Assembly: GCF_003018255.1 (NCBI RefSeq)
Contig: NZ_CP027440.1
DNA: 64,000 nt
DNA from: Escherichia coli
GTDB taxonomy: Bacteria > Pseudomonadota > Gammaproteobacteria > Enterobacterales > Enterobacteriaceae
Strand: one strand, 5' to 3'
The notes under the pieces are model-generated. The model worked only from the letters and a program-made list of their open reading frames with translations, searched no databases and was not told the origin of the DNA. Made by a program: the position numbers and the translations under genes. Of the stretch, positions 4,802 to 64,000 are shown piece by piece; positions within the stretch are counted from its first letter, which is position 1, and each line of letters starts with the position of its first letter.

Positions 4802-5597
4802 GGTTCTCTCCAGCTTTAGTGTCGTTTTGTGTAGGGCAAAAACGAATGACATTCGTTAAATTAATCGGAAAACAAAGCATTACCTTTTAACTAAAAGATA
4901 AGTGACTGTGTTGACATAGTTTTAGCGAGAAATTAATTCTCCATAGGAGAGCAATATCACATCGCAGAATTACAGTGAGAACGTGCATAAATTTAGCGGG
5001 AAAAGACATAAGGGAAAGCCAATTTGTCAGACAAATTGTCGAATGCACAGCAGATTAATCCATAAGATTAGCCTGGAAATCCTTGTTGTCTTTGGTACCC
5101 ATGCGGGATGTCTTCTTTTTAACCAGTCAATAGGCCGCATTACCTGGCGTTGAGTTTTTGAAATGGTGTAATAACCACAACTCAAAGATGTGGAAAATGC
5201 GCGTCATTCATTTCGCCATTAATTATCACTGTGCTCATTAATTAACAGAACACGTATAATGAGAGCCATCTCGCAAAAATGAAAAAACGTTTTATAAAAT
5301 CATTGCTTCATCATGAATTCAAACCCACCTATTAATATCAACAAGATACAAAAAGCATCATCATTAAAATTCATTGCAGTTACATTGATTTCATCAATGA
5401 AATGTAAAAATATATAAACTTGATGATTTAAGCATTTTCTTATACCCGTTCAGACGTTATTCTTATTTCAGATCATCGTCAGAATTGACTCCACGATCAC
5501 ATTTCGGACCGGCAGAAAGGAATTATTCTGCAAACAGTAATTATGGTGTTTTGATTTATCTTGCACCTTTCCACTTCTGGATATAAGGATATTAGGT

Positions 5598-6101
5598 ATG
5601 GCAACCGCTGGAATGCTTCTCAAACTCAACTCTCAAATGAACCGCGAGTTTTACGCATCCAATCTCTACCTTCACCTGAGTAACTGGTGTTCTGAACAGA
5701 GTCTGAACGGCACCGCCACTTTCCTTCGCGCCCAGGCACAGAGTAATGTGACCCAAATGATGCGCATGTTTAACTTTATGAAGAGTGTCGGCGCTACCCC
5801 AATCGTTAAAGCCATTGATGTTCCCGGTGAAAAACTGAACTCTCTGGAAGAACTGTTCCAAAAAACGATGGAAGAATACGAGCAACGTTCAAGCACGCTG
5901 GCGCAGTTAGCCGATGAAGCGAAAGAACTGAATGATGATTCAACCGTCAATTTCCTGCGCGATCTGGAAAAAGAACAGCAGCATGATGGCCTGTTGCTGC
6001 AAACCATTCTTGATGAAGTGCGCAGTGCGAAACTTGCGGGTATGTGCCCTGTGCAGACCGACCAACATGTTCTGAATGTCGTGTCGCATCAGCTGCATTG
6101 A
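5598..6101 (+). CDS. ftnB: ferritin-like protein FtnB
   Basis: 167-aa [34 protein letters not shown]..., ferritin fold; paralog of ftnA located 1.3 kb downstream. Confidence 0.9.
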
Positions 6102-29983: not shown

Positions 29984-30387
29984 GCCAGACGCAGCACATT
30001 CTTGCATTCGACGTGCTGCGCCTTTATTTATTATCAGCCGCAAATGTCTTGTCCTTAGACGCTCTTTCCACATGCGCCACAAGAAACCTCTATTCCAGTG
30101 ACACAATTATGCCTGATTATTTCCCTAGCCCGGAATATGAATAAAAACATCAAATAAGATGAAATTATCAAAATATTAATGTTGCGTCTGAGGTCGTAAC
30201 AACATCCGACGTGGTGATATGTCAAATGAGACACTCTGATGGTCAAAGGGTTTATCGCGTTTACAGATCGTGGATGGCAGAAAACTTTCAGAATCAGGTT
30301 TCCATTTTAAACCAGAAATTAAGTGAGTTTGTCCCATCCATGCCCCACGCGGTGAGATCGGATGTAATCAACAACAGGTTACAAAAC

Positions 30388-30702
30388 CTACACCTGCATG
30401 CTCATCACTTCCTGATACGCCGCCACCAGCTTATTACGCACCTGAATCCCCATTTGCATTGAAACTGAGGCTTTTTGCATATCGGTCATCACATCGTTTA
30501 ACGCCACGCCGGGTTCACCGAGAGTGAATTTTTCTGCCTGCGTGCGGGCGGCTGTTTGTGTATCGCTTATGCGATCGAGCGCGGCGTGCAGCTGCCCGGC
30601 AAAACTAATGGTCGGTTGTGGCAGTGATTCCTGTGTACGCGCACTCATCGCCGTAGCCTGTAACTGGCTGATAACCCCTTCAATCCCCTGTATCGCTGAC
30701 AT
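30388..30702 (-). CDS. fliE: flagellar hook-basal body complex protein FliE
   Basis: ORF 30388..30732; start trimmed to [22 protein letters not shown] (104 aa). Confidence 0.92.
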
Positions 30703-30916
30703 TTTCATCTCCCGGATAATTTCTGGCAGCAAAGCCTACCAGTAAGTCAATAAGACAAAGGCGCTAAATAGCAACAAAAAAACGGGTTTATTGGCGGATA
30801 GAAAAAAACGAAAGCACAAATAATGGGAGCGTCAATTTTTCGAGTTTGCTGACCCGGGAGTGAGTCTTGTTCCACTTTGCCAATAACGCCGTCCATAATC
30901 AGCCACGAGGTGCGCG

Positions 30917-34241
<3,325 letters not shown>

Positions 34242-34242
<1 letters not shown>

Positions 34243-35615
34243 TGACCACGCGCCTGACTCGCTGGCTAACCACGCTGGATAACTTTGAAGCCAAAATGGC
34301 GCAGTTGCCTGCGGTACGTCGCTACGGGCGATTAACCCGCGCTACCGGGCTGGTGCTGGAAGCCACCGGATTACAATTGCCGCTCGGCGCAACCTGTGTC
34401 ATTGAGCGCCAGAACGGCAGCGAAACGCACGAAGTAGAAAGCGAAGTCGTTGGCTTTAACGGTCAACGGCTGTTTTTAATGCCGCTGGAGGAAGTCGAAG
34501 GTGTCCTGCCCGGCGCGCGTGTTTATGCCAAAAACATTTCGGCTGAAGGGCTGCAAAGCGGCAAGCAGTTGCCGCTCGGTTCGGCGTTATTAGGTCGCGT
34601 TCTGGACGGCAGCGGTAAACCGCTTGATGGCCTCCCCTCCCCCGATACGACGGAAACCGGTGCGCTGATTACCCCGCCATTTAACCCGTTGCAACGTACA
34701 CCGATTGAACATGTGCTGGACACCGGCGTGCGCCCAATCAATGCCCTGCTTACCGTCGGGCGCGGGCAGCGTATGGGGCTGTTTGCCGGGTCCGGCGTTG
34801 GTAAAAGTGTGCTGCTGGGGATGATGGCACGTTACACCCGCGCCGATGTCATTGTCGTGGGTTTGATTGGTGAACGAGGGCGCGAAGTAAAAGATTTTAT
34901 TGAGAATATCCTCGGTGCCGAAGGACGTGCACGCTCCGTGGTGATTGCCGCTCCGGCGGATGTTTCTCCGCTCCTGCGAATGCAGGGTGCCGCCTATGCC
35001 ACGCGCATTGCCGAAGATTTTCGCGATCGTGGTCAGCATGTGTTGCTGATTATGGACTCCCTCACCCGCTACGCGATGGCCCAGCGTGAAATTGCGCTGG
35101 CGATTGGCGAACCACCTGCCACTAAAGGTTATCCACCGTCGGTGTTTGCCAAATTACCGGCACTGGTCGAGCGTGCCGGAAATGGCATTAGCGGCGGCGG
35201 CTCGATTACCGCGTTTTATACCGTGCTCACCGAAGGCGATGACCAGCAGGACCCCATTGCCGACTCCGCGCGGGCAATCCTCGACGGTCACATTGTGCTG
35301 TCTCGCCGACTGGCGGAAGCCGGGCACTATCCGGCTATCGATATTGAAGCGTCGATCAGTCGCGCAATGACGGCGTTGATCAGTGAGCAACATTACGCGC
35401 GAGTGCGCACCTTCAAACAGCTGTTGTCGAGTTTTCAGCGTAACCGCGATCTGGTTAGCGTCGGCGCGTATGCCAAAGGCAGCGATCCGATGCTCGACAA
35501 AGCCATCGCCCTGTGGCCGCAGCTGGAGGGCTATTTGCAACAAGGCATTTTTGAACGCGCGGACTGGGAAGCGTCTCTCCAGGGGCTGGAGCGTATTTTC
35601 CCGACAGTATCATAA
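34242..35615 (+). CDS. fliI: flagellum-specific ATPase FliI
   Basis: 457-aa ORF with Walker A GSGVGKS; F1-ATPase-like. Confidence 0.95.
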
Positions 35616-35633
35616 CCCAGGAGATAACGGCAG

Positions 35634-36077
35634 ATGACAGAACATGGCGCGCTGGCGACCCTGAAAGATCTGGCAGAAAAAGAGGTAGAGGATGCCGCGC
35701 GCCTGCTGGGTGAAATGCGTCGGGGATGTCAGCAGGCGGAAGAACAGCTCAAAATGCTGATCGATTATCAGAATGAATATCGCAATAACCTCAATAGCGA
35801 TATGAGTGCCGGGATGACCAGCAACCGCTGGATCAACTATCAGCAGTTTATCCAGACGCTGGAAAAAGCCATTACTCAGCATCGCCAGCAACTTAATCAG
35901 TGGACGCAGAAAGTAGACATTGCCCTGAACAGCTGGCGAGAAAAGAAACAACGTTTGCAGGCTTGGCAGACACTGCAGGAACGGCAATCCACGGCGGCAC
36001 TGCTTGCAGAAAACCGCCTCGATCAGAAAAAGATGGATGAGTTCGCCCAGCGCGCCGCCATGAGGAAACCTGAATGA
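35634..36077 (+). CDS. fliJ: flagellar export protein FliJ
   Basis: 147-aa coiled-coil [34 protein letters not shown]. Confidence 0.92.
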
Positions 36078-37201
36078 TTCGCATAGCGCCCTTGATTACC
36101 GCTGACGTTGATAACGCCACATTGCCTGGCGGCAAAGCCAGCGATGCTGCACAAGATTTTCTCGCGTTGTTGAGCGAAGCATTAGCAGGCGAGACAACAA
36201 CCGACAAAGCGGCCCCCCAGTTGCTGGTGGCAACAGATAAGCCCACGACAAAAGGCGAGCCGCTGGTCAGCGATATTGTTTCCGATGCGCAACAAGCAGA
36301 TTTACTGATCCCTGTGGATGAAACACCGCCTGTCATCAACGACAAACAATCCACATCAACATCGTTAACCACCGCTCAGACGATAACGTTGGCTGCGGCG
36401 GCTGACAACAATACGGCAAAAGACGAAAAAGCGGATGATCTGAATGAAGACGTCACCGCAAGCCTGAGCGCCCTTTTTGCGATGTTGCCGGGTTTTGACA
36501 ATACGCCCAAAGTGACTGATGCACCGTCAACCGTGTTACCGACAGAGAAACCAACGCTTTTCACAAAACTGACTTCTGCGCAACTCACTACAGCACAGCC
36601 TGATGACGCCCCCGGCACACCAGCTCAGCCATTAACACCGCTGGTAGCAGAAGCCCAGAGTAAAGCGGAAGTCATCAGCACGCCTTCGTCGGTGACCGCT
36701 GCCGCCAGCCCGCTAATCACTCCACACCAGACACAGCCACTGCCCACCGTCGCCGCGCCTGTTTTGAGTGCACCGCTGGGTTCTCACGAATGGCAACAAT
36801 CATTAAGCCAGCATATTTCGCTGTTCACCCGCCAGGGGCAACAAAGTGCAGAGTTGCGTCTGCACCCACAGGATTTAGGTGAAGTGCAAATTTCCCTCAA
36901 AGTGGATGATAACCAGGCGCAAATCCAGATGGTTTCACCGCATCAGCACGTACGCGCCGCCCTGGAAGCAGCGCTGCCGGTACTGCGTACGCAGCTGGCC
37001 GAAAGTGGCATTCAGTTAGGGCAAAGCAACATCAGTGGCGAAAGCTTTAGTGGTCAGCAGCAGGCCGCTTCCCAACAACAGCAAAGCCAACGCACAGCAA
37101 ACCATGAACCTCTGGCGGGGGAAGACGACGATACGCTTCCGGTTCCCGTCTCTTTACAAGGGCGTGTAACAGGCAACAGCGGCGTTGATATTTTCGCCTA
37201 A
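36074..37201 (+). CDS. fliK: flagellar hook-length control protein FliK
   Basis: 375-aa Pro/Thr/Ala-rich [36 protein letters not shown]. Confidence 0.92.
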
Positions 37202-37305
37202 CGTCAGAGGTAGCACCGTAATCCGCGTCTTTTCCCCGCTTTGTTGCGCTCAAGACGCAGGATAATTAGCCGATAAGCAGTAGCGACACAGGAAGACCGC
37301 AACAC

Positions 37306-37770
37306 ATGACTGATTACGCGATAAGCAAGAAAAGCAAGCGATCGCTTTGGATCCCGATTCTGGTATTCATTACCCTCGCGGCCTGTGCCAGCGCAGGTTA
37401 CAGCTACTGGCATTCGCATCAGGTTGCCGCTGAAGACAAAGCGCAGCAACGCGTCGTGCCCTCCCCGGTCTTCTATGCGCTGGATACCTTTACGGTCAAT
37501 CTGGGCGATGCGGATCGCGTACTTTATATCGGCATAACCCTGCGACTCAAAGATGAAGCTACCCGCTCGCGGCTGAGTGAGTATTTGCCGGAAGTCCGTA
37601 GCCGTTTGCTGTTACTGTTTTCGCGTCAGGATGCTGCCGTACTGGCGACAGAAGAAGGTAAGAAAAACCTGATTGCCGAGATTAAAACCACACTTTCCAC
37701 CCCGCTTGTTGCCGGGCAACCGAAACAGGATGTCACCGACGTGCTGTATACCGCTTTTATTCTGCGATAA
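37306..37770 (+). CDS. fliL: flagellar basal body-associated protein FliL
   Basis: 154-aa [38 protein letters not shown]. Confidence 0.92.
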
Positions 37771-37774
37771 CGAC

Positions 37775-38779
37775 ATGGGCGATAGTATTCTTTCTCAAGC
37801 TGAAATTGATGCGCTGTTGAATGGTGACAGCGAAGTCAAAGACGAACCGACAGCCAGTGTTAGCGGCGAAAGTGACATTCGTCCGTACGATCCGAATACC
37901 CAACGACGGGTTGTGCGCGAACGTTTGCAGGCGCTGGAAATCATTAATGAGCGCTTTGCCCGCCATTTTCGTATGGGGCTGTTCAACCTGCTGCGCCGTA
38001 GCCCGGACATTACCGTCGGGGCCATCCGCATTCAGCCGTACCATGAATTTGCCCGCAACTTGCCGGTGCCGACCAACCTGAACCTTATCCACCTTAAACC
38101 GCTGCGCGGCACAGGGCTGGTGGTGTTCTCACCGAGTCTGGTGTTTATCGCCGTGGATAACCTGTTTGGCGGCGATGGACGCTTCCCGACCAAAGTGGAA
38201 GGTCGCGAGTTTACCCATACAGAACAGCGCGTCATCAACCGCATGTTAAAGCTGGCGCTTGAAGGCTATAGCGACGCCTGGAAGGCGATTAATCCGCTGG
38301 AAGTTGAGTACGTACGTTCGGAAATGCAGGTGAAATTTACCAATATCACCACCTCACCGAACGACATCGTGGTTAACACGCCGTTCCATGTGGAGATTGG
38401 CAACCTGACCGGCGAATTTAATATCTGTCTGCCATTCAGCATGATCGAGCCGCTACGGGAATTGTTGGTTAACCCGCCGCTGGAAAACTCGCGTAATGAA
38501 GATCAGAACTGGCGCGATAACCTGGTGCGCCAGGTGCAGCATTCACAGCTGGAGCTGGTCGCCAACTTTGCCGATATATCGCTACGCCTGTCGCAGATTT
38601 TAAAACTGAAACCCGGTGACGTCCTGCCGATAGAAAAACCCGACCGCATCATCGCCCATGTTGACGGTGTCCCGGTGCTGACCAGTCAGTACGGCACCCT
38701 CAACGGTCAGTATGCGTTACGGATAGAACATTTGATTAACCCGATTTTAAATTCTCTGAACGAGGAACAGCCCAAATGA
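37775..38779 (+). CDS. fliM: flagellar motor switch protein FliM
   Basis: ORF 37673..38779; start trimmed to MGDSILSQAEIDALLNGDSE (334 aa), immediately after the fliL stop. Confidence 0.93.
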   Translation: MGDSILSQAEIDALLNGDSEVKDEPTASVSGESDIRPYDPNTQRRVVRERLQALEIINERFARHFRMGLFNLLRRSPDITVGAIRIQPYHEFARNLPVPTNLNLIHLKPLRGTGLVVFSPSLVFIAVDNLFGGDGRFPTKVEGREFTHTEQRVINRMLKLALEGYSDAWKAINPLEVEYVRSEMQVKFTNITTSPNDIVVNTPFHVEIGNLTGEFNICLPFSMIEPLRELLVNPPLENSRNEDQNWRDNLVRQVQHSQLELVANFADISLRLSQILKLKPGDVLPIEKPDRIIAHVDGVPVLTSQYGTLNGQYALRIEHLINPILNSLNEEQPK

Positions 38780-39189
38780 GTGACATGAATAATCCGGCCG
38801 ATGACAACAACGGCGCAATGGACGATCTGTGGGCTGAAGCGTTGAGCGAACAAAAATCAACCAGCGGCAAAAGCGCTGCCGACGCGGTGTTCCAGCAATT
38901 TGGCGGTGGTGATGTCAGCGGAACGTTGCAGGATATCGACCTGATTATGGATATTCCGGTCAAGCTGACCGTCGAGCTGGGCCGCACACGAATGACCATC
39001 AAAGAGTTATTGCGTCTGACGCAAGGGTCCGTCGTGGCGCTGGACGGCCTGGCGGGCGAACCGCTGGATATTCTGATCAACGGTTATTTAATTGCTCAGG
39101 GCGAAGTTGTCGTAGTCGCTGATAAATATGGCGTGCGGATCACCGATATCATTACTCCGTCTGAGCGAATGCGTCGCCTGAGCCGTTAG
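38776..39189 (+). CDS. fliN: flagellar motor switch protein FliN
   Basis: 137-aa ORF MSDMNNPADDNNGAMDDLWAEALSEQK... with C-terminal SpoA domain. Confidence 0.93.
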   Translation: MSDMNNPADDNNGAMDDLWAEALSEQKSTSGKSAADAVFQQFGGGDVSGTLQDIDLIMDIPVKLTVELGRTRMTIKELLRLTQGSVVALDGLAGEPLDILINGYLIAQGEVVVVADKYGVRITDIITPSERMRRLSR

Positions 39190-39557
39190 TGATGAATAAC
39201 CATGCTACTGTGCAATCTTCCGCGCCGGTTTCTACTGCGCCACTGCTGCAGGTGAGCGGCGCACTCATCGCCATTATTGCCCTGATCCTCGCTGCTGCCT
39301 GGCTGGTAAAACGGCTGGGATTTGCCCCGAAACGCACTGGCGTTAACGGTCTGAAAATTAGCGCCAGTGCTTCGCTGGGCGCGCGTGAACGGGTCGTGGT
39401 GGTCGATGTGGAAGATGCACGGCTGGTGCTCGGCGTTACCGCAGGGCAAATCAATCTGCTGCATAAACTTCCCCCTTCAGCACCAACGGAAGAGATACCG
39501 CAGACCGATTTTCAGTCGGTCATGAAAAATTTGCTTAAGCGTAGCGGGAGATCCTGA
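39189..39557 (+). CDS. fliO: flagellar biosynthesis protein FliO
   Basis: 122-aa [47 protein letters not shown]. Confidence 0.9.
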
Positions 39558-39770
39558 TGCGTCGTTTGTTGTCTGTCGCACCTGTCCTTCTCTGGCTGGT
39601 TACGCCCCTCGCCTTCGCGCAACTGCCGGGTATCACCAGCCAGCCGCTGCCTGGCGGTGGACAAAGCTGGTCGCTCCCGGTGCAGACGCTGGTGTTCATT
39701 ACCTCGTTGACGTTTATCCCGGCAATTTTACTGATGATGACCAGTTTCACCCGCATCATCATTGTTTTTG

Positions 39771-40000
39771 GTTTATTGCGTAACGCACTGGGAACACCCT
39801 CCGCGCCACCTAACCAGGTATTGCTGGGGCTGGCACTGTTTTTGACCTTTTTTATTATGTCGCCGGTGATCGACAAAATTTATGTCGATGCGTACCAGCC
39901 ATTTAGCGAAGAGAAAATATCAATGCAGGAGGCGCTGGAAAAAGGGGCGCAGCCGCTGCGTGAGTTTATGCTGCGTCAGACCCGTGAGGCAGATTTAGGG
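39771..40000. repeat. direct repeat copy 1 (native fliP sequence)
   Basis: 230 bp, identical apart from a 1-bp G deletion to 40106..40334. Confidence 0.9.
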
Positions 40001-40069
40001 GTCCATGCGCTGTTGTCTTGACTGTTACGTCTTCGCGCAACTTTCAACCTGCTGCTGACGCTGTTTGCA

Positions 40070-40105
40070 TTTTTTTTTTTTTTTTTTTTTTTTTCATTTT
40101 TTTTT
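40070..40105. repeat. homopolymeric T tract (T25-CA-T9) at the duplication junction
   Basis: 25 consecutive T, then CA, then 9 T, read directly from the sequence. Confidence 0.95.
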
Positions 40106-40334
40106 GTTTATTGCGTAACGCACTGGAACACCCTCCGCGCCACCTAACCAGGTATTGCTGGGGCTGGCACTGTTTTTGACCTTTTTTATTATGTCGCCGG
40201 TGATCGACAAAATTTATGTCGATGCGTACCAGCCATTTAGCGAAGAGAAAATATCAATGCAGGAGGCGCTGGAAAAAGGGGCGCAGCCGCTGCGTGAGTT
40301 TATGCTGCGTCAGACCCGTGAGGCAGATTTAGGG
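40106..40334. repeat. direct repeat copy 2 (duplicated fliP sequence)
   Basis: Repeats 39771..40000 with a single G deletion (cactgggaac becomes cactggaac). Confidence 0.9.
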
Positions 40335-40637
40335 TTGTTTGCCAGACTGGCGAATACCGGCCCGTTGCAGGGACCTGAAGCCGTGCCGATGCGCATTTTG
40401 CTCCCGGCTTACGTGACCAGCGAGTTGAAAACCGCATTTCAGATAGGCTTCACGATTTTCATTCCTTTTTTGATTATCGACCTGGTGATTGCCAGCGTGT
40501 TGATGGCATTGGGGATGATGATGGTTCCCCCAGCCACCATTGCTCTGCCCTTTAAACTGATGCTGTTTGTACTGGTGGATGGCTGGCAATTGCTGGTCGG
40601 TTCGCTGGCGCAGAGCTTTTACAGCTAGAGAGGCAAA

Positions 40638-51526: not shown

Positions 51527-52070
51527 GACTCAATCATTTTTTGAACAAATAGATAAATTTTGCGCAACGGCGGTGAATACAGGAAAATTCGATTTGAACG
51601 ATGTTATTTATCTTTGATTTCGGCTTTATTAATTCACTCAATCAATATATTGGCACTGATTACAATTATACCTTTTTATTTTTCTGTGTCATCATGCCTC
51701 CGTTATTAGCCTTTTATCGTCTTGTTTATATTTTTTTGGCCGGCATGATGCCGGCTTTTTTTATGCCTTCATTAATGTGCGCGAGATCACACCAGCCGTT
51801 TAGCACACAATCATTGATACTCCCTATCTTTTCGATCAACTCATAACATATTGATATACATCCATAATGTTCGTGAATATTTATATTCAGAATTCATAGC
51901 CACGAATTATATTAAATAGATTAGAAACATTTTGAAATCTTTTAAATACATTTGTTACATGTAATCTTTAAAATAAAATGAACTTCATAGAATAGTATCC
52001 AAATGTGCTTTTTTTGGATAACAGCACTTATTGATATATTCATGAAGATTATAATCACAAGGGAATACAT

Positions 52071-52172
52071 AATGAAAAGAAAAGTTCTGGCAATGCTGGT
52101 CCCGGCGTTATTAGTTGCTGGCGCAGCAAATGCGGCTGAAATTTATAATAAAAATGGGTTTTTTGTTGCCTG
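52071..52172 (+). pseudogene. yedS: 5' remnant of an OmpC-family porin gene (yedS-like), truncated after about 30 codons
   Basis: atgaaaagaaaagttctggcaatgctggtc... translates to [29 protein letters not shown] then FFVA-stop. This is the porin signal peptide plus mature N-terminus (AEIYNK[DN]G); homology ends where the prophage begins. Confidence 0.8.
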
Positions 52173-54136: not shown

Positions 54137-57100
54137 GCGTCGTATCCCCCCTGATCGCTGTAGTTACTCCTGGCTTTTGCCTTCAGCCTGCGTTCACGTT
54201 CATCAAGCTGGCGTGCCACCTCCCGCGCAATATCCTGCGCACTTTGTCCTGGCTGCGTCTGAATGATGATCTGCGTCGGTGCCTCAATCCGTTGAACGAG
54301 CGGCACAGTGGCTGCGCGACTCACAATTGCTTCTCCACCTTTCGCGGGAAGTGCCAAAGGGTGCAACGGTGGAAGCTCTGCTGGCGCGGCAGCAACGCCC
54401 ATCATTCCGGCAACAACGGCAGCCAGTGCAGCTGTATTTCTCCGGCTGGTCACATTTGCCGGGCCGTTAACAATTTCCGGCCCGTTTTCACCGACGATGC
54501 CAAACTGCCCGCGCGGGATATACCCGCCGCTGTCATACATCCCCGCAAAGCCATATCCCCATGATGGAAAACCACCCGATGGCATCATCACTTTACCGTC
54601 TGCATTCACCGTCGCAGGTTGCTGACGCGTCACGCTTTCCGGCAGTTTTGCCTTTGCGGCCTCTTTACTGACAATGCCGAGCTTCTCCAGCAACCAGGAA
54701 ACGCCGGATTTCAGGGAGTCCAGCGGATGCATGACCATATTCAGCCCTTCCACCAGTGCCTCCCCGAATCGCCGCCCCATTGCCGCTGCGCTCTGCAGTT
54801 CGGCAGAGGTCGACTTAACGGGCGTCAGCAGATCAGTAAACCAGCCCCACAGCGCCTGCACTTTGTCGCCAATCCACTGGAACACGGGCTTAAGCGGTTC
54901 GAACGCTGCACTGATGGGACCTGCCGCCGCTTTGAATCCTTCCACCACGCCACCGAGAAATGCGGTGATGGGTTGCCAGTATTTCCAGACAACCAGCGCC
55001 ACGCCCGCCAGTGCAGTAACCACAAGACCTATCGGACTGAGCAGAGCACCTAACAGACCAGATATGGCATACAGGGCAACGCGCAGCATCGCCAGTGGAC
55101 CAGATGCCAGTACTCGCAGCACCGTGCCTGCGGCGGCCAGTCCACCGCGCAGTACCGACAGAGGATTCATAAACATCACAGCAACAGCACGTAAACCGGA
55201 TAATCCAGACCGCAAAAGTGCAACCGGCGCACCTGCTACAGTTTTCAGGACATTTCCCGTCAGTGATGCCGTGCGGCGCAAAGACGACAACGGCGCAGTA
55301 AGTAAACCTGCGGCGTTGCCCGATGAAGCAAGCCCGCGTCGCAGCAGTGCCAGTGGTGCGCCAGCCAGCCAGGACAACGCGCTGCTGGTTCGAGTTACTG
55401 CTGCCGTAACGAAAGATAACGTTTTGATACCCAGCACAGAGAATCCCAGACGGATCACTGCCAGCGGCCCCAGCACTGCAGCCAGCGCCACCGCTAAGGT
55501 GCCGAGGCCGACGGTAACCGCAGCCACAACAGCCGATGCTTTCATCAGTGTGCCTGTCAGTTCCGGGTTAGCTTCCACCCAGCGACGCAACGCCCCCGTG
55601 ACGCTTTTCACCGTGTACAGAATATCCATCAGCGGCTGGCGCAGCGTTTCGCCCAGGCTGCTGAAGGTGTTCTGCGCTCCGGTTTTGACCAGCAACCACT
55701 GCGCAGAAAGTGAATCCTTGTTAATGTCGGATTCTTTCTGCATGGAGCCGAGCGCATCATTGCCCGCTGTCAGTTTTAACTGACGCTGCAGTTCCGGCAG
55801 GTTGTTTGCCAGTTTCGCCGCGTCATCGCCAAACTCTTTACCAAACAACATAGTCATGGCAGACAGGCGCTTGTCCTGCGGCAGCGCGTTTACCTTCTCC
55901 AGCACGCGCTGGATGGTTCCCATCGCATCCTTCGTCATCTGCTTTTCAATCACTTCAGGATTGAGTTTCAGCAAATTCATCCCTTCAAAGAAACTTTTGC
56001 TTTGCATGGTGGCAATGGACAATTCACGCACCATCGCGTTTGCTGCACTGGCTGCAACCTCTGGCGCAGCGCCCAGTGTCAGGAAGGTGGAACCCAGCGC
56101 CGCCGCTTTACGATAATCCAGACGGTCAGCCACACCGCCCAGACGTTGCATCACATCAATGATGTCTGCCCCTTTCGACATGGCGTTATCATCCAGATAG
56201 TTCAGCGCATCACCGAGCTGTTCAATATTGCGGGTGGGGATTTTGTAGAGCTGGGCGATTTTCCCCAGACTTTCTGACAGTTCATCCGCTGGCAGCTCAA
56301 AGGCTGTTGCCGCCTTTGCTGCCGTACTGGCGAAGGCCAGCAGGTCACGTTTCTGATCTTCCCAACTGTCGTCAGGGTTTGCGACGTTCATGCGCGCACC
56401 ACCTTCAACCAGTGCAGCGAAATCCACCGCACCGTTTTCCATCGGCAACTGTTCGCTGGCAGCCTTGATGGCATCCTGCATTTCATAAAAACGTGCAGTG
56501 CGGTTGCCATTATCGTCACGCAGACCATTGACCTGCTTTGCCACACCTTTCATGGCATCTTCCATGCTGGTATAGCTTTTTACTGCCGCCATCACTGGTG
56601 CGCCCATTGCCAGCCCTGCAGCCGTGGTGGTGGCTCCGGCACCTGCAATACGATCACGCACCTCCAGCGAACGGGCATAACTGGCACGCGCTGCATTCAT
56701 CCTGCGCTGAGCTTCCCCCAGTCGCTTCAGCCGCGCCTCCTGTTTCGAAAGTTCCTGGTTATAACGTGATGTTTCACGGGCTAAACGGGCAGTTGCTCCC
56801 GCATCGTCTTTCGCAGAAATTCCCGCCCGGTACAGTTCAGCACGCACAAGCGCCGTCTGCTGCTGCAGCTTTTTCTGGCGTTCTTCCAGGCGCTGAACAG
56901 CCAGCCGTTGACGGCCCAGAGCAACAACCTGACGTTGCGAAGGCGGCCCCATCGCTCCCAGTTCCTGACTGAGCAAATTTGCACGCTGGCGGGCATAGTT
57001 CAGCCTGTCGCCTAATTTCTGATTTTCTGCCTGCAGCTTTCGGAAGCTGTCCAGACTGCTCCCGGCCTGATCAAGCTGCTTTATTGCATCGCGGGATTTT

Positions 57101-57210
57101 TTGACAGCAGCAGCCAGTTCTCTTGAACTGGCCTGCGCAGATCGAAATGGGCGGGTGAGCTTGTCAACCGCATTAAGAATGACCTGCAGACGCAGGTTGT
57201 TATCACTCAT
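54133..57210 (-). CDS. tail tape-measure protein (P2 gpT-like)
   Basis: 1025-aa ORF with Ala/Leu-rich coiled-coil N-terminal half and Gly/Ala-rich segments, typical of tape-measure proteins. Confidence 0.88.
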   Translation of the reverse strand: MSDNNLRLQVILNAVDKLTRPFRSAQASSRELAAAVKKSRDAIKQLDQAGSSLDSFRKLQAENQKLGDRLNYARQRANLLSQELGAMGPPSQRQVVALGRQRLAVQRLEERQKKLQQQTALVRAELYRAGISAKDDAGATARLARETSRYNQELSKQEARLKRLGEAQRRMNAARASYARSLEVRDRIAGAGATTTAAGLAMGAPVMAAVKSYTSMEDAMKGVAKQVNGLRDDNGNRTARFYEMQDAIKAASEQLPMENGAVDFAALVEGGARMNVANPDDSWEDQKRDLLAFASTAAKAATAFELPADELSESLGKIAQLYKIPTRNIEQLGDALNYLDDNAMSKGADIIDVMQRLGGVADRLDYRKAAALGSTFLTLGAAPEVAASAANAMVRELSIATMQSKSFFEGMNLLKLNPEVIEKQMTKDAMGTIQRVLEKVNALPQDKRLSAMTMLFGKEFGDDAAKLANNLPELQRQLKLTAGNDALGSMQKESDINKDSLSAQWLLVKTGAQNTFSSLGETLRQPLMDILYTVKSVTGALRRWVEANPELTGTLMKASAVVAAVTVGLGTLAVALAAVLGPLAVIRLGFSVLGIKTLSFVTAAVTRTSSALSWLAGAPLALLRRGLASSGNAAGLLTAPLSSLRRTASLTGNVLKTVAGAPVALLRSGLSGLRAVAVMFMNPLSVLRGGLAAAGTVLRVLASGPLAMLRVALYAISGLLGALLSPIGLVVTALAGVALVVWKYWQPITAFLGGVVEGFKAAAGPISAAFEPLKPVFQWIGDKVQALWGWFTDLLTPVKSTSAELQSAAAMGRRFGEALVEGLNMVMHPLDSLKSGVSWLLEKLGIVSKEAAKAKLPESVTRQQPATVNADGKVMMPSGGFPSWGYGFAGMYDSGGYIPRGQFGIVGENGPEIVNGPANVTSRRNTAALAAVVAGMMGVAAAPAELPPLHPLALPAKGGEAIVSRAATVPLVQRIEAPTQIIIQTQPGQSAQDIAREVARQLDERERRLKAKARSNYSDQGGYDA

Positions 57211-57336
57211 CGTTGGCCCCGCTTCTCTGAATCGCTTTATACCGCCATTCCAGCACTTCGGTCAGCGGCATAACGTCAGTAACGGATGGCGGCCAGTGAA
57301 AAATGGTGGCGATATCTGCCACCAGATCGTCAACCG

Positions 57337-57639
57337 TCAGGCTGTCGGTAAACCGGCAAGCACCGACTTCTTCAACAAAAAAGTGACAACCTCAACCGAC
57401 ATGGCAGTGAGATCTGCCGGGTCCATCTCTGCAATTTCCTGTGCAGTCAGTGCCGGACTGGAGATGCGGGGGATCACGATCATCATCGCGTTTACATCCA
57501 TATCCATAATGGCCTGCAGGCGTGTACCGCGCAGCGCACCGGACTGCGGTTTACGCAGCACAATTTCGGTGATTTCTGTTTTACCGCGCTTGATGGGGGT
57601 ATCCAGTTGAATGGTCTTTTCAGTCTGCTTATCGCTCAT
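57337..57639 (-). CDS. P2 gpE-like tail assembly chaperone (0-frame product; E+E' made by -1 frameshift extends to about 57203)
   Basis: 100-aa ORF MSDKQTEKTIQLDTPIKRGKTEITEIVLRKPQSGALRGTRLQAIMDMD...; a slippery site lies near its 3' end. Confidence 0.8.
   Translation of the reverse strand: MSDKQTEKTIQLDTPIKRGKTEITEIVLRKPQSGALRGTRLQAIMDMDVNAMMIVIPRISSPALTAQEIAEMDPADLTAMSVEVVTFLLKKSVLAGLPTA
57376..57382 (-). promoter_or_regulatory. programmed -1 ribosomal frameshift slippery heptamer T-TTT-TTG (E to E+E')
   Basis: Minus strand reads ACT TTT TTG in the E frame. The -1 frame stays open for about 59 further codons, stopping at TGA overlapping the first codons of the tape-measure gene. Confidence 0.7.
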
Positions 57640-57693
57640 TTTGCTGTCCTGTCAATTGGGTTCTGGCGCGGTATCCCGCGCCGTTCAGATATA

Positions 57694-58209
57694 TCAGAGG
57701 CCGAGGGCGTTGCGGTGCGCTTCCATCAGGTCCACACCGTCCACAATTTCCACCATGTTGATAAGGTCCACTTCATAGAGCACCTCACCATTGATGGTCA
57801 GCTTCGCGTAGCTGTTGGTACTGGTCACTTTGGTGGTGTTGCTTTCGCCCGTCTTCCACTCGCCGGAATCCACTTCTTTGTGACGTCCACGCACGACAAG
57901 CTCCACAGCCTGCACTTCCCCGGTATCGTCACGCTGAATAGAGCCGGTAAAGCGCAGCTGGATGCCATCCACCGTGGCTTTACCCATCTGTTTAAACAGC
58001 AGCAATTCAGTACCACCAATGGAAAATTCTGTGTCCAGCGCACTGTCATCAAGCCCCAGATCCACATCCACCGCACCCGGCATTCCGCCGCCGCGATACT
58101 TCTCATATTTGCGGGTGAATTTCGGCAGCGTCAGCGACTCAACGATCCCCTGCCAGTTGTTCCCGTCGTTAAACAGGTTCAGGTGTTTTAATTTGCGTGG
58201 TAAAGCCAT
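57694..58209 (-). CDS. tail tube protein (P2 FII-like)
   Basis: 171-aa ORF MALPRKLKHLNLFNDGNNWQGIVESLTLPKFTRKYEKYRGGGMPGAVDVDLGLDDSALD. Confidence 0.88.
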   Translation of the reverse strand: MALPRKLKHLNLFNDGNNWQGIVESLTLPKFTRKYEKYRGGGMPGAVDVDLGLDDSALDTEFSIGGTELLLFKQMGKATVDGIQLRFTGSIQRDDTGEVQAVELVVRGRHKEVDSGEWKTGESNTTKVTSTNSYAKLTINGEVLYEVDLINMVEIVDGVDLMEAHRNALGL

Positions 58210-58218
58210 GTTGTCCCC

Positions 58219-59391
58219 TTACGCGCTGACCTGGCTGGCGAAATTCACCAGGTACTGATCGGTGATGCGCTGACGCAGCATCAGGTTTTCAAGTGGCGGC
58301 ACTGGCGTGTAGTCGTAGTCGATGGTGAGTTTTCCGGCTTTCAGCGTGTCTTTGTCGTTCACCGACTCATCCAGCCAGCAATCACCACCAATGAGATAGC
58401 CCTGACTGACCAGGCTGCGCATTTTGGCGCGGATACCTTCGATAATGTCGCGGGCCAGCGACGGGTTAAGCGGTTTATCCACCGCCCACATGTGTGCTTC
58501 TGCCATCGTGTCCATCAGCACCTGCGCCGTGCGGGTGTAGTTTTCGAAGGCAAAGAGCGGGTCATCACTCAGGCAGCGGGAACCCCAGAAGCGGAAACCG
58601 TCTTTACGCACAAGCGTGGTGACGTCGTTCTGGTTCAGCAGACCTGCATCGGTTGCCGGGTCCTGCAGATCCCAGAACACATCTGCAGAAATTCCGGTGA
58701 CACCGTTCACGCCCACGTTGGACAGGCTTTTGTGCCATCCGGTCTGCTCGTCAATTTTGGCGCGCAGACCAAGCGCACGGGCGGTGGCATATGCCGTTGC
58801 TTCGGCATTCAGCACCGTGTCCCAGCCAGTAAAGTCAGGCCAGATCAGCATCCCTTCGCGCTGGCTGAAGTTTTCGCGGTAAGTGATCGCCTCCTGCACT
58901 GTCTTGCAGCCATACGCTGACAGGTAAGCAAATCCACGCAGGCTTTGCGCCACGCTCAGCAACTCAGTAGCTACCGCCTTGGTGTCGTGGCCTGGCACGC
59001 CGAGAATGCGCGGTTTAACGCCGAGCTGTGACTGGGCAGATAACAGGGCTTTCATACCTGTTTTTTTACCTTCAGCAGTCACTGCGCCGATGATATTGGT
59101 CGTGGTTTCGTCTTCCGTTTCACCCTGCGGCACACGCACAACAATGGTCACGGGTTTTGCCTGGTCAGCGATGGCATCCAGCGAACGGGCCAGAGTACCG
59201 GACTCACCCGCTTTACCGCTGGCAGTCAGCACATCAGTGATCAGCACGGGTTTATTAAGAGGAAACATTTTTGCATCGGCATCATCGCCCGTGCAGACCA
59301 TACCCACGATGGCGGTGCTCACCGTGGTAATAGATCGGGTGCCTTCGTTGACTTCAACAACGCGCACCCCGTGGTGGTAATCCTGAGCCAT
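58219..59391 (-). CDS. contractile tail sheath protein (P2 FI-like)
   Basis: 390-aa [56 protein letters not shown]. Confidence 0.9.
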
Positions 59392-59533
59392 AGTGGCGAA
59401 CCTCCTGATTGGATTAGGCTTCGCCCTATGTTGAAGTGATTGTGCCTGACAAACAGCTAAGCGCAGTTGTGTCGTTATTCACACAAAATAACGGTATTTG
59501 TCTGCTTGCAGGGATAATCAACATAATGCTGAT

Positions 59534-60100
59534 TCAGGGGGATTCATTGATCTTATTTGCCGGAAATTTTCTATAAATGGTAGAAACGCCTACATCAAAA
59601 ATCAGTGCAATACGCTGTCTTGATTCTCCGGCCTCGAGTAAACGCCCAATCTGTGCCCACTGTTCGGTGGTCAACTTAGGACGGCGTCCACCTACTCTGC
59701 CTTTGGCACGAGCTGCAGCCAGCCCTGCCCTGGTACGTTCAACTATCAGTTCGCGTTCCATTTCAGCCAGGGCACCCATGACATGAAAAAAGAAACGGCC
59801 CATTGGGGTACTGGTATCAATACTGTCAGTCAGGCTTCTGAAATTCACACCACGCTGGCGCAACTCTTCTATCAGCGTAACAAGATGCCGCATACTGCGC
59901 CCCAACCTGTCCAGCTTCCAGACAACCAGCGTGTCTCCTGCCGATAGTGTCCTGAGTAGTTTTTTCAGCCCCGGTCTGTCGGACTTAGTGCCACTGATTT
60001 TGTCCTCAAAAATCCGCTCACATCCCGCGCAGTTCAGTGCATTACGTTGCAAATCGGTGTTCTGGTCATTTGTTGACACGCGTACATAGCCAATAAGCAT
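59534..60100 (-). CDS. pin: serine-recombinase DNA invertase (Pin/Gin/Cin/Hin family)
   Basis: ORF 59534..60106; MLIGYVRVSTNDQNTDLQRNAL... with catalytic Ser in the YVRVST motif and C-terminal HTH (GVSTIYRKF); very close to e14 Pin. Confidence 0.9.
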   Translation of the reverse strand: MLIGYVRVSTNDQNTDLQRNALNCAGCERIFEDKISGTKSDRPGLKKLLRTLSAGDTLVVWKLDRLGRSMRHLVTLIEELRQRGVNFRSLTDSIDTSTPMGRFFFHVMGALAEMERELIVERTRAGLAAARAKGRVGGRRPKLTTEQWAQIGRLLEAGESRQRIALIFDVGVSTIYRKFPANKINESP

Positions 60101-60155
60101 GATCATCCCCCTGAATAAAAACCGGAGATGATGCCAGTTAGCTGTTACCTCTGCA

Positions 60156-60181
60156 TTTTCTTAAACGTTGGTTTGGGAGAA
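60156..60181. repeat. invertase crossover site, left (pix/gix/cix-like)
   Basis: ttttcttaaacgttggtttgggagaa; inverted repeat of the site at 62124..62149. Confidence 0.75.
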
Positions 60182-60664
60182 GGTTCAGCATTACCTGTTG
60201 GTGCGCCTGTTCCGTGGCCTTCAGAGACACCTCCAACAGGCTGGCTGAAATGCAACGGGGCGGCTTTTTCTGCTGAAGAATACCCGGAACTGGCAAAGGC
60301 TTACCCGACAAATAAATTGCCTGATTTACGAGGTGAATTTATTCGTGGCTGGGATGATGAACGTGGTGTGGATAGTGGGCGAACTCTGCTTTCAGCGCAA
60401 GGAGATGCTATTCGAAACATTACTGGCGGTTTTGGTCAGTTGCGCGTAAACAGCGAAATTAATGCAATTGTCGATGTTCAAAGTGTGAGTGGGGCTTTTT
60501 ACGGAGGTACCTCAGTCCGGAATAACATCAATGTGTCTATGACATACGCTAATGACCGAAAAATCCGACAAGATGTTCACTTCTCGGCGGCAAATGTTGT
60601 TCCAACAGCAAATGAAAATCGTCCACGTAACATCGCCTTTAATTATATTGTGAGGGCCGCATGA
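60156..60664 (+). CDS. alternative tail-fibre C-terminal segment (Sv'-like), silent in this orientation and lacking its own start
   Basis: The frame is open through the crossover site (..LGE-GSALPVGAPVPWPSETPPTGWLKCNGAAFSAEEYPELAKAYPTNKLPDLRGEFIRGWDDERG...), so inversion would fuse it to the H constant part at the conserved GLGE junction. The track's ATG at 60128 is probably not a real start. Confidence 0.7.
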
Positions 60665-61265
60665 TGAATAAAGCTGTATTAAATAGCAAACTCATTGCCA
60701 TAAAAGCGGGAGACATTATCATTTATAATTATGATGGTGAAACGCGGGAATATATTTCTACATCAACTGAATATCTCGCTGTCGGCGTCGGTATCCGGCA
60801 TGTTCTTGTTTGGATGCACCAGGTACACATAAAGCTGGTTATGCAATTTGTCGTTCTGTAGATTTAAACTCATGGGAATATGTGCCAGACCATCGCGGTG
60901 AAGTTGTCTATAACACCGAAACGGGAGAATCAAAAGAAATCACAGCTCCGGGTGATTACCCTGAAAATACAACCACTATCGCCCCATTAACGCCATACGA
61001 TAAATGGGATGGCGAGAAATGGGTGACGGATACCGAGGCACAGCATAGCGCCGCAGTAGATGCAGCGGAAGCACAGCGCCAGTCGCTGATTGATACTGCA
61101 ATGGCTTCCATCAGTCTGATTCAACTGAAATTGCATGCCGGACGTAAACTGACGCAGGCAGAAACAACCCGGCTTAACGCTGTGCTGGATTACATTGACA
61201 CGGTGACGGCAACAGATACCAGCACCGCGCCGGATGTCATCTGGCCTGAACTACCGGAGGCGTAG
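60661..61265 (+). pseudogene. tail-fibre assembly protein gene (Tfa', partner of Sv') with an apparent 1-bp frameshift
   Basis: N-terminal part in frame 1 (60661..60861, MMNKAVLNSKLIAIKAGDIIIYNYDGETREYISTSTEYLAVGVGI) and C-terminal part in another frame (60810..61265, ...DAPGTHKAGYAICRSV...TDTSTAPDVIWPELPEA). The frames join if one C is added in ggtatc-cggca around 60795. Confidence 0.6.
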
Positions 61266-61680
61266 GCCATTCAATATCTGGAGCACTGGAGGTATCAACC
61301 AGTTCCAGTGCGTCCAGATAATCCAGCCATAAATTATATTGTTCCAGTTCGTCACCTTTCAGACGACCAATAGCAGCTTTGCCAGGCCACTGATGGGTGT
61401 TGATGTAGGTATTGGCTTCTGAAACCAAAGATATTTTTTTCATTTCAGCCATCAACACCTCATCCTCTTTTGAAGGCGGTGGGGAATTAATCCATATTGG
61501 CCGTCCTGAACTGTCAGCGCCAATTTCTTTCCCTTCTGGATGCAGCCCAAGAAATTGCTCATATCTTTCTCTGGTAATTTCAATAACATCATCAGGAAGC
61601 GTTCCCGCATCCTCATATTCTGGAAACAATTCTTGCAGATAAAAACTTTTACTTCCGGGTGAAAAGAATACTGAGTTCAT
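61237..61680 (-). CDS. tail-fibre assembly protein (Tfa / P2 gpG-like), active orientation
   Basis: 147-aa ORF directly downstream of H; C-terminus ...DTSSAPDIEWPTPPVVQAR resembles the Tfa family C-terminal motif. Confidence 0.8.
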   Translation of the reverse strand: MNSVFFSPGSKSFYLQELFPEYEDAGTLPDDVIEITRERYEQFLGLHPEGKEIGADSSGRPIWINSPPPSKEDEVLMAEMKKISLVSEANTYINTHQWPGKAAIGRLKGDELEQYNLWLDYLDALELVDTSSAPDIEWPTPPVVQAR

Positions 61681-61682
61681 TC

Positions 61683-63185
61683 TTACCGTCCAATGATTAA
61701 GGCTGAGACGCTGGTATCTGAAGGAAAGGCTGCATTCAGTGGTTTGTCGACTTTGAATACAATCGTATTATTCCCCCTGACAGCGGCAAAAGAACAAACC
61801 GCAGTCGCGTATGAACCTGTAATATTACTGGATACACCACCATAAGCTGTTGTTGATACCAGAGGGATAACGCCCAGCACCTTATTAGGAAATACAAAGG
61901 GCAATGTGGCTGTGGCAATATAAGACTTATTAGAACCTGTGATGGAATAAGCATTATCAGTCATTCCATTCATCGCCACTGGGCCGCTTATACTTACAGT
62001 AACCATCTGAATGATTAGCCCGTCAGGTTGACGAATCACAAAATTTCCATTGCCACCAGTAACCGTCCAGAAAGACATATCAGGGATTTGGTTTTCCCCG
62101 TTGCCCACATTCCGTTTTGCCGCTTCTCCCAAACCAAGGTATGTGAGAAGACCAGCTACATCCTTTCCACTCAAATTGGTAAGCGTATTGTCCAGCGGTT
62201 GTTTACCTGCCAGCGCATTAAGCATTGTCGTGGCAAAGTTCGGATCATTCCCCAGTGCCGCCGCCAGTTCGTTCAGTGTATCCAGTGCAGCAGGTGCAGA
62301 ACCCACCATTCCTGCAATCGCCGATTTCACAAAAGCCGTAGTGGCAATCTGTGTATTGTTGACCGACTGCGCCGCCGTGGGGGCTGTTGGCGTTCCGGTG
62401 AGTGCCGGACTCGACAACGGTGCTTTTAGTGCCAGCGCATTGTTAATGGTGGTACTGAAATTCGGATCATTGTTAATGGCTGCGGCTATTTCTTTCAGCG
62501 TGTCCAGCGTGGCTGGCGCACCATTAATAAGGGCCGTCAGTGCCGCCTGTACAAACGCAGTGGTCGCAACCTGCGTGGTATTATTCCCCGCCGCTGGCGT
62601 TGGCGCTTTGGGGGTTCCGGTAAATGTCGGGCTGGCTTTTGGCGCGTACTGTGAATGCGGGTCCGGTGCGGCAAGATGTTTTGCCATCTGATCATCCGCG
62701 TACACCTTCAGCTCCAGTGCCTTGTCATCCACATACTTGCGGGTTGCCAGCACTACAGCAGGGTCGATTTTCAGGGTGATATTGTCCGTGCTGCTGGTAA
62801 TCAGCACCATGCGCACGGTCTGAGTGCGCCCGCTACCTTCAGCCAGTTGCGGCTTATAGCTTTCCGGGCAGTTGCCCACGGCAATCAATGCCCCGGACTC
62901 ATCAAACAAGCCCACTTCACGTATCCACCAACCGCCCTCGTTTTCAGGGATCACCTGTTCGGCAATAATCTGGCTGCTGTTCTGCGGGTCGATATAAAGC
63001 ATATTCAGCGCAGCCCGGCGTTTCTCATTTACCAGTGCCGTCTGCTTTGCGTCCGGCGTTGGCAATACTCCACCGCCATCGCCCACCGCCATATGGGTAA
63101 TTTTTAGCGGCACACCGAGCGCGGCGGCGCTGGCAAGTTTCGCCGCGCCAATATCCGTCAGCAGGGTATAAAATTTTGTGCTCAT
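61683..63185 (-). CDS. tail fibre protein (P2 gpH-like); C-terminal part (61683..62123) lies inside the invertible segment
   Basis: 500-aa ORF; N-terminus MSTKFYTLLTDIGAAKLASAAALGVPLKITHMAVGDGGG... resembles P2 gpH; repeated motif TAFV...ALDTLNELAAALGNDPNF. Confidence 0.88.
   Translation of the reverse strand: MSTKFYTLLTDIGAAKLASAAALGVPLKITHMAVGDGGGVLPTPDAKQTALVNEKRRAALNMLYIDPQNSSQIIAEQVIPENEGGWWIREVGLFDESGALIAVGNCPESYKPQLAEGSGRTQTVRMVLITSSTDNITLKIDPAVVLATRKYVDDKALELKVYADDQMAKHLAAPDPHSQYAPKASPTFTGTPKAPTPAAGNNTTQVATTAFVQAALTALINGAPATLDTLKEIAAAINNDPNFSTTINNALALKAPLSSPALTGTPTAPTAAQSVNNTQIATTAFVKSAIAGMVGSAPAALDTLNELAAALGNDPNFATTMLNALAGKQPLDNTLTNLSGKDVAGLLTYLGLGEAAKRNVGNGENQIPDMSFWTVTGGNGNFVIRQPDGLIIQMVTVSISGPVAMNGMTDNAYSITGSNKSYIATATLPFVFPNKVLGVIPLVSTTAYGGVSSNITGSYATAVCSFAAVRGNNTIVFKVDKPLNAAFPSDTSVSALIIGR
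62124..62149. repeat. invertase crossover site, right (pix/gix/cix-like)
   Basis: ttctcccaaaccaaggtatgtgagaa; lies inside the H coding sequence at codons ~346-354 (LTYLGLGEA). Confidence 0.75.
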
Positions 63186-63787
63186 GGATTCACTCTCATT
63201 GTGTCAATAACATGGACCGCCCCGCCTTCATGCGCGGTGCCACCGGAAATAATCGTTTCGTTGATATACGGATAGATCGTGATTTCTTCGCCAAGATAGC
63301 TGGCGGCTCCCACCCAATGCGGGCCGCTGGTCTGCAGATTGATGGACATGCCGATCATGTGGCGGCTACATGGTTTGGCATCGCTTATCAGTCGCTCAAG
63401 TTCCAGATAGGTATCTTCAGTGATGCCCTGGTCCTGCACGCCGATATCCAGGCGAAACGTGCCCGGTGTTTCTCCGGTCTGCCACCACTCAATAATGCGG
63501 ATCAGGAATCCGAACGGTTCCACCGCCCGCCGCACGGCACTGGTGGTTCCTTTATGCTGATGAATATAAAAAGCATCCTTCACTACCTGGCGTTTGACGC
63601 TTTCTGTCCAGCCCTCGTCCCAGCGATCCACAGAGAACGCCCAGGCGAGATAAGGCAGGAAGCTGACCGGACAGGTAGCCGGATTCCACAAGTCACGCAG
63701 CGGCACCTGCAAATCAGAAATCCCGCTACAGGTTTGCGCCAGTCGGCGCTCCAGTGAAGTTGAACCCGGTGGCAGCAGACTATTCAT
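63182..63787 (-). CDS. baseplate protein (P2 gpI-like)
   Basis: 201-aa ORF with RDLWNPATCPVSFLPYLAWAFSVDRWDE... matching my memory of P2 gpI (RELWNPDTCPANLLPWLAWAFSVDRWDE). Confidence 0.85.
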   Translation of the reverse strand: MNSLLPPGSTSLERRLAQTCSGISDLQVPLRDLWNPATCPVSFLPYLAWAFSVDRWDEGWTESVKRQVVKDAFYIHQHKGTTSAVRRAVEPFGFLIRIIEWWQTGETPGTFRLDIGVQDQGITEDTYLELERLISDAKPCSRHMIGMSINLQTSGPHWVGAASYLGEEITIYPYINETIISGGTAHEGGAVHVIDTMRVNP

Positions 63788-64000
63788 CCGTTCCTCCGTT
63801 GGTTACGCTCCACTGCGTACATGATGCCGCCTGTGTTTTGTTCAGGACCACATCCGCCAGCGGAGAAGCCAGTTCCACACGTTGAACACCCTCAACATGC
63901 AGAGCAGCAAAGATGGCGCTACGGCGAATATCCCGACCAAGCCTCGTCTGGCTGGCAATGTACTTCTGCAGACTGGCTTTTGCCGCTGCCATTACCGGCT
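63780..64000 (-). CDS. baseplate assembly protein (P2 gpJ-like), C-terminal part only (5' end beyond window)
   Basis: ORF fragment ...LQKYIASQTRLGRDIRRSAIFAALHVEGVQRVELASPLADVVLNKTQAASCTQWSVTNGGTDE; overlaps the gpI start. Confidence 0.75.
   Translation of the reverse strand, partial: PVMAAAKASLQKYIASQTRLGRDIRRSAIFAALHVEGVQRVELASPLADVVLNKTQAASCTQWSVTNGGTDE

Follow-up and report, generated by a model that had tools for sequence, protein, structure and literature searches.

The window, as we call the 64,000-nucleotide stretch of E. coli DNA analysed here, ends in a prophage that carries two genes for tail-fibre assembly chaperones, one expressed and one silent. The silent gene, Tfa', changes reading frame part of the way along: at positions 60795-60796 it reads GGTATCCGGCA, a CC run that is one C short. 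Has the isolate lost the chaperone of its alternative fibre by mutation? Does the frameshift serve a function? Or is the missing base a fault of the assembly?

The last ~12 kb of the window constitute a P2-like prophage in the E. coli chromosome, adjoining the fli, dcm, vsr region. Read along the minus strand the order is J, I, H, Tfa / Tfa', Sv' / invertase, sheath, tube, E, tape measure, U, D and ogr. The right end of the prophage is at approximately 51900-52160. A prophage-free relative (L010, GCA_045611385.1) aligns to position 52157 and continues into a porin gene, which would place the att site just beyond the drpB and HD-domain (yedJ-like) genes beside dcm-vsr. The features that concern us are these:

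59534..60106, minus strand: DNA invertase, a serine recombinase of the Gin/Cin/Pin/Hin type, 190 aa from the first ATG (Pfam Resolvase, E=2.3e-53, and HTH_7, E=1.5e-15)
60156..60182, no strand assigned: left crossover site, an inverted repeat arm with a 12-bp core, GGTTTGGGAGAA, at 60170-60181 that is common to the right site
60183..60664, plus strand: Sv', silent alternative C-terminal segment of the fibre (Pfam Collar, E=3.4e-16; mechanical ORF 60128-60664)
60664..61265, plus strand: Tfa', chaperone gene of the silent orientation, split into ORF 60661-60861 (66 aa) and ORF 60810-61265 (151 aa)
60795..60796, plus strand: the lesion, CC where relatives have CCC, a one-base deletion at codon 45/46 (alignment and exact-pattern counts)
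61237..61680, minus strand: Tfa, chaperone of the expressed orientation, 147 aa (Caudo_TAP, E=5.2e-28; ORF list)
61683..63185, minus strand: tail fibre gene H, 500 aa in the present orientation (Pfam Phage_tail_fib, E=4.5e-65)
62123..62149, no strand assigned: right crossover site, inside the H gene, with the core as reverse complement at 62124-62135

The invertase matches structures of phage Mu Gin (PDB codes 3UJ3 and 4M6F) over its full length with E=1e-92 (1.2e-92 for 3UJ3, residues 3-186). The crossover arms, 27 nt long and 81% complementary, are 1940 nt apart and bound a segment of ~1.95 kb. Within it two cassettes converge, Sv with Tfa, expressed and completing the 500-aa fibre, and Sv' with Tfa', which are silent. 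The constant part of H lies above ~62136 and the variable part, Sv, occupies 61683-62122; an identical H protein is present on 5 contigs. The 3' ends of Tfa and Tfa' overlap by 29 nt. At the 5' end of Tfa' the ATGATG (60661-60666) overlaps the TGA stop of Sv' (60662-60664), an arrangement in which Tfa' is directly downstream of the Sv' fibre-tip segment and would be translationally coupled to it. With the segment inverted in silico, the constant part of H reads in frame into Sv' and the fibre is of 514 aa. The relatives L017, L018 and L020 have a fibre gene called at that same length, with a 200-aa Tfa' after it. In the present orientation, then, H (500 aa) and Tfa (147 aa) would be the expressed pair, and after inversion the constant part of H with Sv' (514 aa) would be made, then Tfa' (200 aa).

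All the structural features tested were found and, judged by its sequence, the locus is an invertible tail-fibre switch of the Gin/Cin/Pin/Hin type in a P2-like prophage. The G segment of Mu (gin; S/U, S'/U'), the C segment of P1 (cin) and the P segment of e14 in E. coli K-12 (pinE; stfE/tfaE, stfP/tfaP) share with it an adjacent serine invertase, imperfect inverted crossover sites, one inside the fibre gene, and two convergent cassettes of fibre tip and Tfa, so arranged that on inversion the fibre receives a different C-terminus in frame. Close homologs of Tfa' bear the name tfaE in RefSeq. Unlike the switches of Mu, P1 and e14, this one sits in a P2-like prophage and its Tfa' has a one-base deletion in one assembly. 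For E. coli, PMC4272514 describes segments of this kind inverting in the e14, Mu and P2-like prophages. P2-like phages and prophages that carry an invertase, such as Escherichia phage pro483 (KR073661 / NC_028943) and the P2-like prophages of EPEC E2348/69, display the same order, I, H, Tfa, Tfa', Sv', invertase, sheath, tube, E, T, U, D, ogr. Over window positions 60100-61300, pro483 aligns with 89% identity across 80% of the query and is annotated there with tail fiber, tail fiber assembly and DNA invertase genes. The fibre-tip sequences of the window differ from those of pro483-type prophages, and the homologs have an intact Tfa'.

The frame opened by the ATG at 60661 (frame 1) encodes MMNKAV...EYLAVGVGI and then, out of frame, a further 21 residues (RHVLVWMHQVHIKLVMQFVVL) up to its stop at 60861. 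Frame 3 runs on through ...RRRYPACSCLDAPGTHKAGYAICRS... (also written ...YPACSCLDAPGTHKAGYAICRS...) to its stop at 61265. The sequence at window 60780-60815 is tgtcggcgtcggtatCCggcatgttcttgtttggat. Alignment of the DNA with three E. coli homologs places a single gap in this stretch, of one C, with GGTAT-CCGGCA in the window against GGTATCCCGGCA in the homologs; a query of 1201 bases around the site corresponds to homologous E. coli regions of 1202 bases. The alignment confirms the sequence-only reading of the window, which had put the frame break down to the loss of one C from ggtatcc(c)ggca. That reading had also predicted that one extra C would give a continuous Tfa of ~200 aa containing ...VGVGIPACSCLDAPG..., and the C-restored protein is of 200 aa, as are the homologs, and is identical to an E. 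coli protein that 48 public contigs carry. Its assignment of Tfa' to the silent orientation stands as well, the gene lying in the unexpressed half between the inverted crossover sites. A separate start of the homologs at 60810, with which no frameshift would be needed, was considered and rejected, all homologs being single ORFs of 200 aa. Read directly, the sequence in front of the TTG at 60810 contains nothing like a Shine-Dalgarno sequence.

In the repaired Tfa', Caudo_TAP (PF02413) is matched by residues 78-199 (Pfam, E=2.9e-32, 112 bits against a cut-off of 22.1), and the N-terminal part is covered by Caudo_TAP_N (PF28596) in precomputed annotation. Sequence searches of the repaired protein against the PDB and NCBIfam gave no matches. 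A member of the Tfa family should consist of one uninterrupted ORF of ~150-200 aa; the window copy is split at codon 45 and, as written, is a pseudogene of that family.

How common is the shortened run? CCC is present, as GGTATCCCGGCA, in 12 of the 12 homologous loci fetched, and exact-pattern counts find CC only in a further locus, L004. Homologs are annotated as one gene of 603 nt encoding a 200-aa 'tail fiber assembly protein'. In IMG/VR the 22-mer with CC occurs on 0 contigs and that with CCC on 82. The truncated 66-aa product is found on exactly one contig, of 4,892,666 bp, among ~15 billion proteins. Besides the window, one of ~140 complete genomes has CC at the site. This is E. coli CREC-591 (L004, NZ_CP024821.1), in which the site belongs to the invertible segment of a different P2-like prophage (4440-5730). 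Around six other single bases are missing there within a stretch of ~200 bp of Sv', one more is missing from the opposite Tfa, and RefSeq marks the H and Tfa genes of the segment 'frameshifted'. The CREC-591 sequence is direct evidence that consensus deletions accumulate in invertible segments, which may be especially error-prone in some long-read assemblies, and it suggests that the C run of Tfa' is miscalled recurrently.

A homology search with the 66-aa product retrieved many truncated N-terminal fragments of Tfa from public data. We considered whether these share the frameshift of the window and rejected the idea. Fragments such as P0032, P0047 and P0049 retain ...GIPACSCLDAP and change frame a few codons later at CCAGG (window 60819-60823); among the truncated fragments that extend over the out-of-frame tail, a shift at the C run is confined to the product of the window itself. 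Since their shift site is CCAGG, the fragments lend no support to CC as a natural allele. Most truncated Tfa' products of ~65 aa shift at CCAGG, a Dcm-type site, and many derive from short Logan or ENA contigs. A methylated motif that is systematically misread in sequencing may account for these shifts. Over the short stretch of Tfa' around the C run and CCAGG, apparent frameshifts are, as far as the retrieved sequences indicate, common in low-quality contigs.

The accuracy of the window elsewhere can be judged against close relatives. RefSeq complete E. coli genomes include no clone-mate, the best matches being 99.2-99.5% identical, and the comparison was made with other assemblies. Positions 55684-64000 align with L005 over 8318 bp with 0 mismatches and 1 gap, and the alignment with L006 covers 3834 bp, also with 0 mismatches and 1 gap. 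When the segment is inverted in silico the window aligns with L017 (GCA_029307295.1) over 6962 bp with 0 mismatches and 1 gap, which is the missing C; this base is the sole difference in a 1974-bp segment. Positions 40128-60182 (20 kb) and 38589-40000 (1.4 kb) show 0 differences from L008, and positions 10771-32510 (21,740 bp) show 0 differences from L014. In total ~47 kb are base-for-base identical to clone-mates except for the C, the orientation of the segment and a 335-bp block in fliP. Comparison of 30074-40000 with relatives revealed no gaps, and in the remainder of the window there is a single intergenic T5/T4 difference that is common to another relative. The 64-kb window thus has two private anomalies only, the C of Tfa' and the fliP block. 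Outside that block no private one-base indel other than the missing C occurs in ~62 kb, despite ~880 C3/G3 runs and many longer ones. The notion that the whole assembly is error-prone was rejected on this ground.

The switch is flipping in this clone, because clone-mates with 0 mismatches carry both orientations: L008, L017 and L022 have the segment opposite to the window, whilst L005, L006 and L021 have it as in the window. In the sample fetched, the Sv'/Tfa'-ON state is the commoner consensus (L017 and 14 similar places). The contigs of the short-read clone-mate assemblies L021-L023 break at the segment or the crossover sites. Tfa sequence recurs within E. coli genomes, at as many as 11 places in one.

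The second anomaly is of a different kind. Window positions 40001-40335 (335 bp) are a second copy of the preceding part of fliP, 39680-40000 (321 bases), and interrupt the gene (39557-~40630). The first ~125 bases of the copy are noisy and rich in deletions, with a T25 run, a T9 run, G-to-T changes and a GGG-to-GG change; the remainder is identical. In clone-mates L008, L009 and L011, otherwise identical to the window, FliP is intact at 245 aa. A real tandem duplication in a clone free of single-nucleotide differences would give two identical copies, and for this reason the block looks like an artefact of an assembly join or circularisation rather than a real mutation. A copy that begins at the quality of a raw read is the mark of an unpolished long-read join, and it shows that long-read sequence went uncorrected in this assembly at a place beyond the reach of short reads. 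The sequence-only reading had taken fliP and Tfa' as two homopolymer-linked anomalies, the second, in Tfa', bearing on the trust to be placed in the first. The link in trust holds; the description does not, as the fliP lesion is a noisy duplicate of 335 bp and not a simple homopolymer slip. Together the two anomalies lower trust in both as biology, and it is not a matter of one merely casting doubt on the other.

We consider that the missing C is probably a consensus error of this one assembly, in a region that would polish poorly owing to mixed orientation and the multi-copy tfa sequence. A culture in which the switch is active would hold both orientations, and this, with several copies of tfa, would make read mapping and polishing unreliable at Tfa'. 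A long-read miscall of the deletion type, CCC to CC, could survive into the final sequence because polishing is weakened in this way. The lesion resembles the residual consensus errors of long-read assemblies in heterogeneous or repeated regions: it is a private one-base deletion in a short G/C run, inside a segment with two orientations, and the same window holds a noisy duplicated block. CREC-591 would represent a more severe case. In the window segment, by contrast, a single base is affected; its origin in long reads is presumed. We infer that the C deletion and the fliP block probably share a technical origin.

The other reading with some weight is that replication slippage has genuinely, and very recently, shortened CCC to CC in this isolate alone and so inactivated Tfa'. 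Overall we regard it as unlikely, yet with a share of the probability that has to be taken seriously. The deletion is present in the sequence as given. Because ~62 kb are otherwise free of private indels, the fliP block aside, a miscall at a three-base run is not something that the general error rate leads one to expect, and the segment shows one difference only, in contrast to the heavily damaged segment of CREC-591. In the lysogen, selection does not act on a silent prophage gene, which could therefore tolerate a real frameshift. The break, at codon 45 within Caudo_TAP_N, would leave neither fragment as a working chaperone, and the TTG at 60810 offers no evident means of rescue in the form of a ribosome-binding sequence ahead of it. 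Against this, the absence of any substitution in ~47 kb relative to clone-mates makes a real one-base indel in Tfa' unlikely a priori, private real mutations being very rare in this strain. The CC allele is missing from IMG/VR and from the 12 loci, its one other occurrence is in the error-ridden segment of CREC-591, and the window itself holds a clear assembly artefact with a like miscall, GGG to GG. The sequence-only reading had left the choice between a real mutation and a sequencing error open. The evidence gathered here tips it towards error.

Could the frameshift be functional, either programmed at the ribosome or a slippage-prone site that turns the gene on and off as phase variation atop the inversion? 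That two unrelated assemblies, those of the window and of CREC-591, show CCC to CC is what such a proposal would draw on. All other homologs are a single uninterrupted 200-aa ORF with CCC, however, and neither a two-frame architecture nor a slippery site is conserved. A run of three bases is too short for appreciable slippage, the CREC-591 copy occurs among many other deletions, and the other truncated products in the databases shift at CCAGG 60819-60823. We therefore give the proposal hardly any credence, and on the sequences compared a programmed or phase-variable frameshift appears effectively excluded. Equally improbable in our view is the more ambitious form, in which CCC to CC would be a real and recurrent off-switch of the slippage type for the alternative chaperone, adding a second, mutational layer of host-range control to that of inversion.

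What would follow if the deletion were real? The products would be an N-terminal fragment of 44 residues and a C-terminal fragment that could be started only at the TTG at 60810. For the Tfa of Mu, a variable N-terminal domain is described as binding the fibre and a conserved C-terminal helical domain as trimerising (PMC9608196, citing North et al. 2019). By analogy with Mu Tfa the two fragments would provide no working chaperone, because the break falls in the fibre-binding N-terminal domain. Phage of the Sv' orientation might then lack the cognate chaperone for the alternative fibre, or fail to assemble that fibre. One of two host ranges would be lost at no cost to the lysogen, and the lesion would be a case of ordinary early prophage decay.

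At face value the window suggests two pseudogenes, fliP, and hence a non-motile strain, and Tfa', and hence a crippled host-range switch. Both are probably products of the assembly. The main value of the observation is in quality control, since neither pseudogene is usable for biological inference without reads. For the biology of the organism there is nothing new: the frameshift is most probably not a biological feature, and the invertible tail-fibre switch is textbook biology.
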